Source: an uncultured delta proteobacterium
Lineage (GTDB): Bacteria; Desulfobacterota; Binatia; UBA9968
Length of the DNA: 64,000 bases
Assembly: GCA_963760795.1 (NCBI GenBank)
Contig: CAVXEP010000020.1
Location: forward strand, 128,001 to 192,000
Direction: 5' to 3'
Position numbers and translations under genes: made by a program. This document shows positions 31,649 through 33,598 of the stretch, one piece after another. How positions within the stretch are numbered: position 1 is the stretch's first letter; every line of letters starts with the position of its first letter. A model generated the notes under the pieces. The model worked only from the letters and a program-made list of their open reading frames with translations, was not told where the DNA came from and ran no database searches.

Positions 31649-32663
31649 TTGAAGAGGTTTACGTTGTCAAAACATGGCCGTGCAATTCTACTGCGTTTGC
31701 TGATATTAATTCTCGGCGCGCCGGCGCTGCTTTGCGCCCAGGAGCGCTACATCGCCAGCTACGCCGGCTTTGCCGGCTTTCAAGCGCCGCTCTGGGCGGC
31801 GCAGGATTTTGGCTTGCTCGCCAAGTACAACATCAACTTGGATCTGGTCATGATCCCCGGCTCGGCGCGCGGCGCTCAGGCGCTGATCGGCGGTAGCACT
31901 CATTTTGGCCAGATCGACGGCACCGCGCTGATCAGCGCCATCAATCAGGGCGCCGATCTGGTCTTCATCGGCGCGTCGTTGAATAAATTTCCATTCAGCT
32001 TGGTTACGCAGAAGAGTATTCGCCGGCCGGCAGATTTGATCGGTAAGAAAGTCGGCATGGTGAGCTTCGGCGGCGCCCATGAAGTGTCGTTGGTGTTAGC
32101 GCTAAGAGAATGGAATATCCCGCGCCAGTCGGTCACGCTGCTGGCCAGCGGCCCAGCGGCTAATCGTTTGATCGCGCTGTCGAGCGGCGCTCTGGACGCG
32201 ACGCTGCTGGCGCCGCCGGAGACCGGTGAAGCGGTACGGCTGGGCCTGCCGACGCTGGCCAACATGACCGATCTTGAAAGGCGCTGCGTTTCCGATGAAC
32301 GTCATCGCCGCGCGCCGTTCCTTCGTCGAGAAAAACCGCGATATGGTCAAGCGCTTCATGCAGGCCTACAGCGAGGCGACCTACCAGTTCATCGCCAACA
32401 AGGAGAAGTCGACAGCGATGTATACAAGTAGGATGAAGCAGAAAAACCCCGCCGTGGTCGACGAGACCTATCAGTATTTCGCCAAGTCCTTCTCATCTCC
32501 GCCCCGCGTCTCCCATGAAGGCATGCGCCTCGCTCTCGACATGCTCGCCCAGCGCAATCCGGAAACCAAACTCGACATGAATATCGCCAAATATGTCGAC
32601 GAGCGCATCTTGGACGAGCTCGAGCGCGATGGTTTTTTTAAACGCATCGCCACCAAGGGCTAA
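31649..32663 (+). CDS. ABC substrate-binding protein, NMT1 family; frameshift near 32275
   Basis: PLWAAQDFGL, LIGKKVG; C-terminal YVDERILDELERDGF. Confidence 0.83.
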
Positions 32664-32695
32664 CCTAGTTTGTAATAACGAGGAATGCAGTTCTT

Positions 32696-32763
32696 ACCAC
32701 GAAGCGCGAACAAAGTTCGGAACATAATTCCCGAACCCTTCGGGTCCTTCGTGCCTTCGTGGT
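32696..32763. repeat. ACCACGAAG...CTTCGTGGT palindromic repeat
   Basis: Same family as 20447 and 31553. Confidence 0.75.
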
Positions 32764-32833
32764 GAACGGGCATTTCGCGGGCATTTGAGCTCGGCCGCAA
32801 AGGCTGCTGCAACCTCATCGCGTTCAGCGTAGA

Positions 32834-33598
32834 ATGCCGAGCATGAGACGAATACTGATCTGGATTCGCCGCACGGTTGGCACGACCAAGATAGCGCGTC
32901 TACTGCACCGCCATTTGCCGTCGAGCAAGCGCTGCAAGGAATGCCTAGTGCCCTTCTTGGGCATCTTCGCCGTGCCTTATCAGCTGCTGCAGATTCGCCC
33001 GTCGCGCAAGAATCCCCATCTCTGTACCCTCTGATACGAGCTTGCTCCTCCGGGCGGGGAGACGAAAAACATCTCGGTCATGTTCGTCGACATCCGTGGC
33101 TACACCTCGCTGGTGGAACAGATGGAGCCCGTAGCAGTGGCGGCGCGGCTCAATCACTTCTACGAAATCGCCACCCAGGCGATCTTTCGCCATGACGGCA
33201 CCCTCGACAAGCTGGTCGGCGACGAAGTCATGGCGTTCTTCGGCGCGCCTCTGAATTGGCGGGATCATCCACAGCGCGCCGTGACCGCCGCATTGGAAAT
33301 CCTGCGCGGCGTTGCCGCATTGCCGGAGAAAGACCGTCTAGAGATCGGCATCGGCATTAGCACCGGCCCGGCCTTTGTCGGCAATGTCGGCGGCAAAGAC
33401 TTCACCGACTATACGGTCCTCGGCGATACCGTCAACGTAGCCGCGCGGCTCCAAGGCGCCGCCGCGCCAAGTGAAATATTGCTCACCCAAGATTCCTTCG
33501 ATCCGGTCGCCCGGCAGTTTCCCAAGGCGACGCGCCGCGAGCTTGAACTCAAAGGCAAGACCGAACCGGTGGTCGCCTGGGAGATCGCCCGCGAGTAG
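32834..33598 (+). CDS. Class III adenylate cyclase with N-terminal CxxC...CxxU ribbon; in-frame TGA at 33032-33034 (putative selenocysteine)
   Basis: ORFs 32834-33034 and 33080-33598 are in the same frame, separated only by TGA: RCKEC...NPHLCTL*YELAPPGGETKNISVMFVDIRG; catalytic DKLVGD and YTVLGDTVNVAARL motifs. Confidence 0.8.
33045..33061 (+). promoter_or_regulatory. Putative bacterial SECIS hairpin
   Basis: CTCC-(T bulge)-CC-GGGC-GG-GGAG; stem follows a 10-nt spacer after the TGA and the loop starts with G. Confidence 0.55.

Follow-up and report, generated by a model that had tools for sequence, protein, structure and literature searches.

We analysed a 64,000-nucleotide stretch (the window) of contig CAVXEP010000020.1 from an uncultured delta proteobacterium of the Binatia. 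On its + strand, the window carries a gene for a class III nucleotidyl cyclase whose reading frame is interrupted by one TGA codon, between an N-terminal module of two Cys-containing knuckles and the catalytic domain. This TGA (33032–33034) is very probably a genuine selenocysteine (Sec) codon, and the product a genuine selenoprotein, as judged for the product from sequence evidence. The fuller explanation, in which Sec decoding yields one ~251-aa polypeptide that works as a knuckle-sensor cyclase, is probable. Combining a Sec-decoding gene with a class III cyclase, this knuckle-cyclase would define a selenoprotein family that is new as far as the literature searched goes. The computational evidence consists of conservation of the UGA, Cys-containing homologs, a hairpin under RNA-level selection, Sec machinery in the host genome and a cyclase fold.

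An open reading frame (ORF) of 66 aa (32834..33034) lies in the same frame as one of 172 aa (33080..33598), and the TGA at 33032–33034 is the sole interruption. This agrees with an earlier note on the window, made from its letters alone, that had proposed a 254-aa read-through protein. Read through, the frame gives 254 aa with one non-standard step at U67 (...RCKEC-x26-CTL[U]YELAPPGGETKNISVMFVDIRG...; residues are numbered from 32834 throughout). The read-through part of that proposal stood, and the start was corrected. The ATG at 32834 is followed in frame by an ATG at 32843, the codon of M4. M4 is invariant in 21/21 aligned sequences and the orthologs begin at the Met aligned with it, so ATG 32843 is the likelier start. 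The selenoprotein cyclase gene accordingly runs from 32843 to 33598 (+ strand, stop TAG 33596–33598) and encodes 251 (or 254) aa, with Sec at residue 64 of the shorter form. Orthologs crossed the TGA in single tblastn segments without a change of frame. The note had also taken the 33080 ORF to be truncated by itself. This follows from the AlphaFold model of the read-through protein, where the first residue of that ORF, Met83, falls inside strand 1 of the cyclase domain (residues 76–87).

We searched related genomes with the read-through protein as query. Matches were found in 39 of 61 genomes, the closest each with exactly one TGA, and of the 90 genomes in the taxonomic family, 52 had the architecture when searched with a profile of the knuckle region alone. 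A phylum-wide sample contained the knuckle-cyclase in just 3 of 401 genomes, the window's own genome included; the architecture is therefore concentrated in the window's family. TGA was present at the identical codon in 27 clade-1 and 11 clade-2 genes from 33 distinct genomes (25 clade-1 genomes and 31 genomes overall without two unpublished ones, G004 and G479). These were the 38 genes verified at the site among 41 matches flagged as having one TGA. The other three were a Cys form whose TGA lay elsewhere, close to the end of a contig (G020), a decayed copy (G027) and a second copy in G004 that could not be placed. Clade 1, which includes the window gene, reads ...RCKEC...RPSRKNPxLCTLU YELAPPGGE... 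(27 genomes), and clade 2 reads ...RCLAD...NPNLCNRU ExHWExGRLSE... (11 genomes); the two are ~40% identical. No member of clade 1 or clade 2 had Cys at the Sec site. Conserved residues upstream of the TGA were each encoded by 2–5 synonymous codons, and synonymous variation was present both upstream and downstream, which indicates coding conservation on both flanks. Two clade-1 copies (G019, G029) had frame breaks further downstream. Decayed clade-1 copies (G027:C54:54027-54779 and G029:C15:898143-898885) carried frameshifts and extra stops. We did not find selA in G027 (92% complete), yet it was present in G029, so gene decay and loss of the Sec machinery were not consistently linked.

A third clade from the same genomes had Cys at the site in 13/13 genes first examined (CTRC; ...CTRC STHVEEGR...). 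Clade-3 proteins are 370–430 aa long and have a C-terminal hydrophobic extension. The window's genome holds two of these Cys paralogs (L049, L050). In one genus, the Sec form (clade 1) and a membrane-anchored Cys paralog (clade 3) lie 4–8 kb apart on one contig in 6 genomes (G492:C45, G494:C342, G487:C36, G489:C148, G491:C213 and G497:C100).

Beyond the family, the species-genome matches listed included Cys-form knuckle-cyclases in Mycobacterium/Mycolicibacterium, other Actinomycetota, Sneathiella and Binataceae, with the motif ...RCKLCNNPFGG...RPSRKNPNLCSRC CDxLPPGG.... A Cys homolog from a Chloroflexota metagenome-assembled genome (MAG) reads ...KNPHMCTLC YEYAPPGGE..., so that Sec and Cys forms have near-identical flanks (CTLU YELAPPGG vs CTLC YEYAPPGG). 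These uncharacterised proteins share one architecture, ...RCK.C..PF.G...RPSRKNP.LC..C...PPGG... followed by the cyclase, and carry Cys (TGY) where the window protein has Sec. They are 41–59% identical to it and are annotated merely as 'adenylate/guanylate cyclase domain-containing protein'. Among the 120 best public protein hits, 108 were truncated calls of 152–197 aa, covering 58–73% of the query at 61–98% identity; public annotation therefore misses the read-through. Where named, these were 'adenylate/guanylate cyclase domain-containing protein [Candidatus Binatia bacterium]', and some began at MAPPGGE, right after the TGA. The remaining 12 hits were long and 52–59% identical. These nearest full-length public proteins read CTLCYEYAPPGGE (12/12), with Cys at the site in all 12.

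Metagenome figures refer to the 80 loci listed, and one of the two search patterns ended in a Cys codon. Among these loci, 32 had TGA, 24 TGC and 24 TGT; such a pattern favours Cys forms, so 32:48 is no fair frequency of TGA to TGY. The TGA loci comprised 27 distinct sequences. Fifteen loci were clade-1-like and 17 formed a third Sec clade (...SRKNPxMCNxU DDxLPTGGAEV...; L238–L240, L242, L245–L248, L254, L256–L260, L263, L264 and L281), which was seen here on metagenome contigs only and is nested among actinobacterial-type Cys forms. In 3 of the 17 loci the first knuckle was out of frame or missing, and L256 had an extra in-frame TGA beside it. One sub-clade mixed TGA (L209, L220) and TGT (L210, L213) for a single peptide, ...CTM[U/C]YEFAPPGGE.... 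The earlier note spoke of Cys-form homologs and asked for the same TGA in other genomes; both were found, Cys forms in 13/13 clade-3 genes, 12/12 full-length public proteins and 48/80 metagenome loci, and the TGA in the 33 related genomes and 27 distinct metagenome sequences, a recurrence well beyond what chance would give.

For a maximum-likelihood tree, we masked the Sec/Cys column and used 146 distinct sequences, of which 59 had Sec and 87 Cys. We excluded same-place duplicates, sequences of the two unpublished genomes, copies that were decayed or truncated, and pieces <180 aa. The tree needed at least 5 changes of state between Sec and Cys, 4 of them forced by well-supported branches. Because the tree is unrooted, the direction of these changes cannot be told.

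The window lies on contig C20 of a genome (G000) that spans 6.58 Mb in 35 contigs and is 88.9% complete. We observed that this genome encodes the Sec machinery for which the earlier note had proposed a search. A tRNA-Sec was detected (Rfam 76.7 bits; ARAGORN calls SeC, anticodon tca), and selA (612 bits), selB (410 bits) and selD (379 bits) are clustered on contig C11. The selD gene itself has an in-frame TGA. The formate dehydrogenase alpha gene (fdhA) has a TGA at the classical ...ARIUHSS... site, followed by a hairpin (GUCCCC/GGUCU/GGGGAC) whose stem is 6 bp long and whose GGUCU loop lies as far from the UGA as the loop in the cyclase gene. We found selA in 77/90 genomes of the family and in 32/33 genomes with the TGA-form cyclase. 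TGA is also an ordinary stop in these genomes, and many of the cyclase genes themselves end in TGA. The N-terminus of the selD product (G000:C11:1948-2960) is spread over two frames (RLTQSVK and AAGUAAKLGPGDL), apparently through a 1-nt indel in an A-run.

Evidence on the codon from sequencing runs was taken from their assembled contigs rather than from raw reads. Contigs of three DNA studies (soil, soil and bog) cover the site, and no other base was listed at 33032–33034. Small shares of the stretch were covered by RNA runs. One contig from a rhizosphere RNA library covers 32950–33189 and spans the TGA, with 12 differences and 42 further difference rows unseen. It is consistent with transcription, and is no proof of it. 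The read check suggested in the earlier note therefore gave no other base in three DNA studies and one RNA library, at the level of contigs. None of the computational refuting conditions named in that note was borne out.

Downstream of the UGA, we identified a stem-loop of the bacterial Sec insertion sequence (bSECIS) type (33042..33065, + strand; −8.6 kcal/mol). The upper stem pairs 33045–33050 with 33056–33061 (CUCCUC/GGGGAG, 6 bp) around a 5-nt apical loop (33051–33055, CGGGC) whose apex starts 16 nt beyond the UGA. The stem continues past a bulge of one base. The bSECIS consensus, as given in section 5 of PMC13188914, comprises a loop of 3–9 nt with a G in its first two nucleotides, an upper stem of 4–16 bp, a UGA-loop spacing of 16–37 nt and a minimum free energy (MFE) at or below −7.5 kcal/mol. 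The window hairpin agrees with these published constraints on loop, stem, spacing (16 nt) and energy (−8.6 kcal/mol). The scan that discriminated was position-specific, with the apex 16–19 nt after the codon. In the genomes, a hairpin with its apex at 16–18 nt and a G in the first two loop positions was present in 13/13 TGA genes vs 0/13 Cys genes, and in 27/400 ordinary TGA stops. Among the distinct metagenome sequences, it was present in 26/27 TGA genes vs 11/42 Cys genes. Rfam gave no match in 32500–33300 at E ≤ 1.

The evolutionary pattern is the strongest evidence for the hairpin and shows RNA-level selection on the stem. We compared hairpin columns in codon register, as MAFFT on 51-nt pieces after the UGA shifted the clades by 14 nt. 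Stems of the different clades are unrelated in sequence (CUCCYC/GGGGAG, GGGAGRCG/CGYCUCUC and CCCACC/GGUG-GG, the last from the third Sec clade, CCCACC/GGY/GGUG(C)GG with its loop), and a loop GG is kept at nt 22–23. The fdhA hairpin of the window's genome follows this pattern. Pairing was kept in all 27 clade-1 and all 11 clade-2 genes. Pair 18:26 was U-G in 14 genes and C-G in 13, and pair 19:27 was A-U in 8, G-C in 2 and G-U in 1; loop and flanking third positions varied freely. Among the 23 clade-1 genes that are published and intact, a single codon was used throughout at 4 of 6 stem-loop positions (GCT, CCG, GGG and GAG), vs 0 of 54 columns with equal amino-acid conservation elsewhere (Fisher P = 3e-5); GCT and GGG each make up only 11% of their codon family genome-wide. 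An earlier 8-gene set that included the unpublished G004 gave 6/9 fixed vs 9/68 (P = 0.0013). In the nearest Cys genes with the same peptide (A-P-P-G-G-E; L210 and L213, n = 2), GGC/GGT and CCC/CCT codons break stem pair 17:27 and the loop G is lost.

The catalytic domain (33062..33565, + strand) is a class III cyclase by profile, fold and residue set, and cAMP synthesis is predicted from these. Pfam PF00211 matched residues 77–244 (E 1.6e-24; 86.9 bits vs a curated cut-off of 21.9); NCBIfam gave nothing beyond weak partial cyclase matches for the read-through protein. The AlphaFold model had a mean predicted local distance difference test score of 83.9 and a predicted template modelling (TM) score of 0.77. 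Its best Foldseek matches were CyaC of Spirulina platensis (1wc1; E 2.9e-18, TM 0.84 by target), Cya2 of Synechocystis (2w01) and CyaB of Pseudomonas aeruginosa (3r5g), with E from 2.9e-18 to 2e-16, TM by target of 0.79–0.85 and 30–34% identity across the three. The best sequence match among PDB entries by phmmer was 2w01 (2.5e-26). Like these three enzymes of the same catalytic fold, the window protein has both metal Asp residues and the Asn/Arg pair: D86 (33089–33091), D130 (33221–33223), N201 (33434–33436) and R205 (33446–33448), all on the + strand, align with identical residues of Cya2. K126 (33209–33211, +) and T194 (33413–33415, +) are present in aligned columns that hold Glu and Gly in Cya2. 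All six residues that the earlier note had described as intact are thus in place. We take these columns to be metal-binding (D86/D130), substrate-defining (K126/T194) and transition-state (N201/R205) positions. K126 and T194 presumably form the adenylate-type Lys/Thr pair of the CyaC sub-class, in which Lys plus Thr would mark ATP-specific enzymes. The clade-2 genes in the alignment (L030, L034, L060, L061) have R, Q or H in place of the substrate-defining Lys, so clade 2 may differ in substrate or activity. With Asp at the second ligand of the first knuckle as well, clade-2 cyclases may take another metal or substrate, or be regulatory subunits. CyaC, Cya2 and CyaB differ from the window protein in having no Sec, no N-terminal CxxC...CxxU knuckle and regulatory domains of other kinds.

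The N-terminal 75 residues consist of a basic helix and two knuckles (C34xxC37 ... C64xxU67). The first, C34-K-E-C37, is encoded at 32933..32944 (+) and its C34 is invariant in 21/21 sequences. The second, C64-T-L-U67, is encoded at 33023..33034 (+); C64 and the U/C67 column are invariant. Strand 1 begins 9 residues beyond the end of the knuckle, and the metal-binding Asp86 lies 19 residues beyond it. At the second ligand position, clades 1 and 3 and the actinobacterial-type group carry Cys, and clade 2 carries Asp (C-L-A-D; L030, L034, L060, L061, L197, L198, L200, L201 and L203–L205). Together, the invariant C34, C64 and U/C67 and the C/D at 37 suggest a putative four-ligand site. The earlier proposal that the TGA takes the place of the fourth Cys in a two-CxxC ribbon agrees with the invariance of C34, C64 and U/C67, and departs from the data at the second ligand of clade 2. 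A purely structural zinc site is possible as an alternative role of the knuckle. We also considered a thioredoxin-fold CxxU protein and rejected it: residues 1–75 of the model form short helices and isolated bridges with no thioredoxin-like sheet, and the read-through protein has no thioredoxin-type Pfam match. The knuckle may still work like a CxxU redox pair despite lacking that fold.

We propose the following order of events. SelB with Sec-tRNA would bind the stem-loop 10 nt downstream, inside the coding sequence, and insert Sec, giving one ~251-aa polypeptide with a basic N-terminal helix, a four-ligand knuckle, 9 residues and strand 1 of the adenylate cyclase domain. The knuckle would be the sensor, and Sec, paired with C64 in CxxU, its reactive centre. 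In the reduced state, a metal (Zn or Fe) would sit on the four ligands, or these would maintain a defined fold. Class III cyclases act as dimers. If the pair were oxidised to a selenenylsulfide, or the metal lost, the adjoining strand with Asp86 would shift and dimer-dependent cAMP synthesis would change with it. This particular mechanism, a redox or metal switch at C64/U67 on cAMP synthesis, is a plausible and still tentative proposal. A redox-reactive C64xxU67 pair, perhaps inside a redox-labile metal site and controlling the catalytic dimer, is favoured because the site has switched at least 5 times and because conversions from Cys to Sec are mostly at redox motifs such as CxxU, as PMC1794560 reports.

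The UGA precedes the whole catalytic domain, so a full-length cyclase would be made only when selenium is available. Sec could therefore be real and have a mainly translational role, with full-length enzyme made only with selenium and Sec-tRNA, cAMP reporting the selenium supply, and the Cys-form paralogs of the same genome made regardless of selenium. The two Cys paralogs in the window's genome, the Sec and Cys forms 4–8 kb apart on one contig in 6 genomes of one genus, and a selD that is itself a selenoprotein gene in this genome all fit such a role. A chemical role is indicated, however, by the place of Sec at a ligand position that is invariant within a conserved motif. The site has also changed between Cys and Sec at least 5 times, a behaviour of redox-active Cys residues (PMC1794560). 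We consider a mainly translational role improbable. A combined reading would make Sec a ligand of a metal or redox knuckle that gates cAMP, add selenium-dependent synthesis, and so describe a sensor of both redox and selenium status; the P-x-G-G codons would supply a proto-SECIS, and the self-complementary CCN..GGN would, as a ready-made proto-SECIS, account for the repeated Cys/Sec switches at one codon. That all of this holds together is rather unlikely.

Gene callers annotate the TGA as a stop, as the 108 of 120 listed public homologs at 58–73% of the read-through length show, and termination at UGA always competes with Sec insertion. Were it a true stop, the locus would encode a separate ~63–66-aa knuckle peptide and a separately initiated cyclase, or be a pseudogene. 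The restart codon is unconserved, however, with L, V or I in the Met83 column of many orthologs, and a start there would delete half of strand 1. The stretch from the TGA to Met83 shows conservation at the protein level, and the Cys homologs are all single polypeptides. A nonsense mutation would not be kept at the same codon by three clades while purifying selection acted on both flanks, and decayed copies look different, with the frameshifts and extra stops seen in G027 and G029. A true stop is thus very improbable. The chance that the TGA is a sequencing or assembly error for TGC or TGT is close to nil. Probable assembly indels do occur elsewhere (selD near its A-run and a split transporter gene upstream), but those are indels rather than substitutions, the same TGA was seen in metagenome contigs and in 33 genomes assembled independently, and the contigs of three DNA studies show no alternative base.

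Several observations weigh against Sec decoding in a four-Cys sensor. The hairpin is modest, and loose criteria alone fail to discriminate in this G+C-rich DNA. The 60-nt fold after the UGA had a z-score of 0.38. A strict contiguous-stem scorer passed 0/9 clade-1 genes at −7.5 kcal/mol and 4 Cys genes at spacings of 30–35. A scan based on MFE was unstable and without discrimination, with Cys genes passing at spacings of 29–30. Hairpins weaker than −7.5 kcal/mol made up 3/13 in the genomes and 12/26 among the distinct metagenome sequences. The 11 of 42 distinct metagenome Cys genes that form the hairpin at the same spot do so because the P-x-G-G peptide (CCN..GGN) is self-complementary. At the knuckle, Asp at the second ligand of clade 2 counts against a four-Cys metal site, no Pfam (E ≤ 0.1 outside the cyclase domain) or NCBIfam model matches the module, and the protein Atlas, queried with a natural Cys homolog, returned no named family for it. 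The RNA evidence is thin, being one contig of a 95%-like relative in one library that may hold DNA. Related genomes are non-independent samples, and the selenoprotein claim as a whole is a computational one.

To our knowledge, the bacterial selenoproteins described so far are almost all oxidoreductases or metabolic enzymes. Sec ligates the metal in formate dehydrogenase (Mo/W) and [NiFeSe] hydrogenase. Should the knuckle bind a metal, Sec would likewise be a direct ligand; the metal of those enzymes is catalytic, whereas that of the putative knuckle would be regulatory or structural. Bacterial CxxU/UxxC selenoproteins (thioredoxin-like, AhpD-like and others; PMC13188914) share with the knuckle-cyclase a Sec/Cys pair in CxxU and a stem-loop inside the coding sequence after the UGA. 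The knuckle-cyclase hairpins fit the bSECIS consensus, with loops of 3–5 nt, a G within the first two nucleotides, a spacing of 16–18 nt and stems of 6–8 bp. Interconversion of Sec and Cys is recurrent in both (PMC1794560). Unlike those proteins, the host protein here is a signalling enzyme with no thioredoxin fold, and its CxxU is half of a two-knuckle four-ligand motif.

The earlier note knew of no characterized selenoprotein cyclase, and we found none in the literature searched, although supplementary tables of selenoproteome surveys could list one. The word 'cyclase' is absent from the text of the main prokaryotic selenoproteome papers, including the family table of a 2026 review, supplementary tables excepted, and synonyms of cyclase are absent from PMC13188914 and PMC12013277. 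No work in the literature searched joins bSECIS with a cyclase, or a class III adenylyl cyclase with a zinc ribbon. No title listed for Binat- names with selenocysteine was about selenoprotein cyclases, and among works on selenoproteins, adenylate cyclase and SECIS, none was apparently bacterial from its title or the start of its abstract.

If the proposed reading is true, Sec in the sensor module of a cAMP-producing enzyme links selenium and redox chemistry to signal transduction. With natural Sec and Cys versions that have near-identical flanks, this ~250-aa system would be suited to working out what Sec can do and Cys cannot. Soil bacteria labelled Candidatus Binatia commonly carry the family, which has a second clade from metagenomes, and public calls, systematically cut to 152–197 aa, lose its sensor. 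A hairpin that arises from P-P-G-G codons would be a clear case for the origin of a SECIS inside coding sequence.

The neighbours of the cyclase gene are ABC-transporter parts (BPD_transp_1 and NMT1-like binding proteins) and an Amidohydro_2 enzyme, and give no clear functional clue. The NMT1-like binding-protein gene upstream is split over two frames (31649–32431 and 32274–32663); this split and the frame break in selD suggest homopolymer indel assembly errors rather than real decay. A 36-nt element at 32731–32766, ~77 nt upstream of the likely start codon, consists of three CCTTCGTG-like units and has no Rfam match. We observed 40 copies of it (≤5 substitutions) on both strands of the genome and 64 copies of a 22-nt core. 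In three soil and bog DNA runs its summed contig depth was 1200–2400, vs ~7–30 for the flanks. The element is a widespread, dispersed intergenic repeat.

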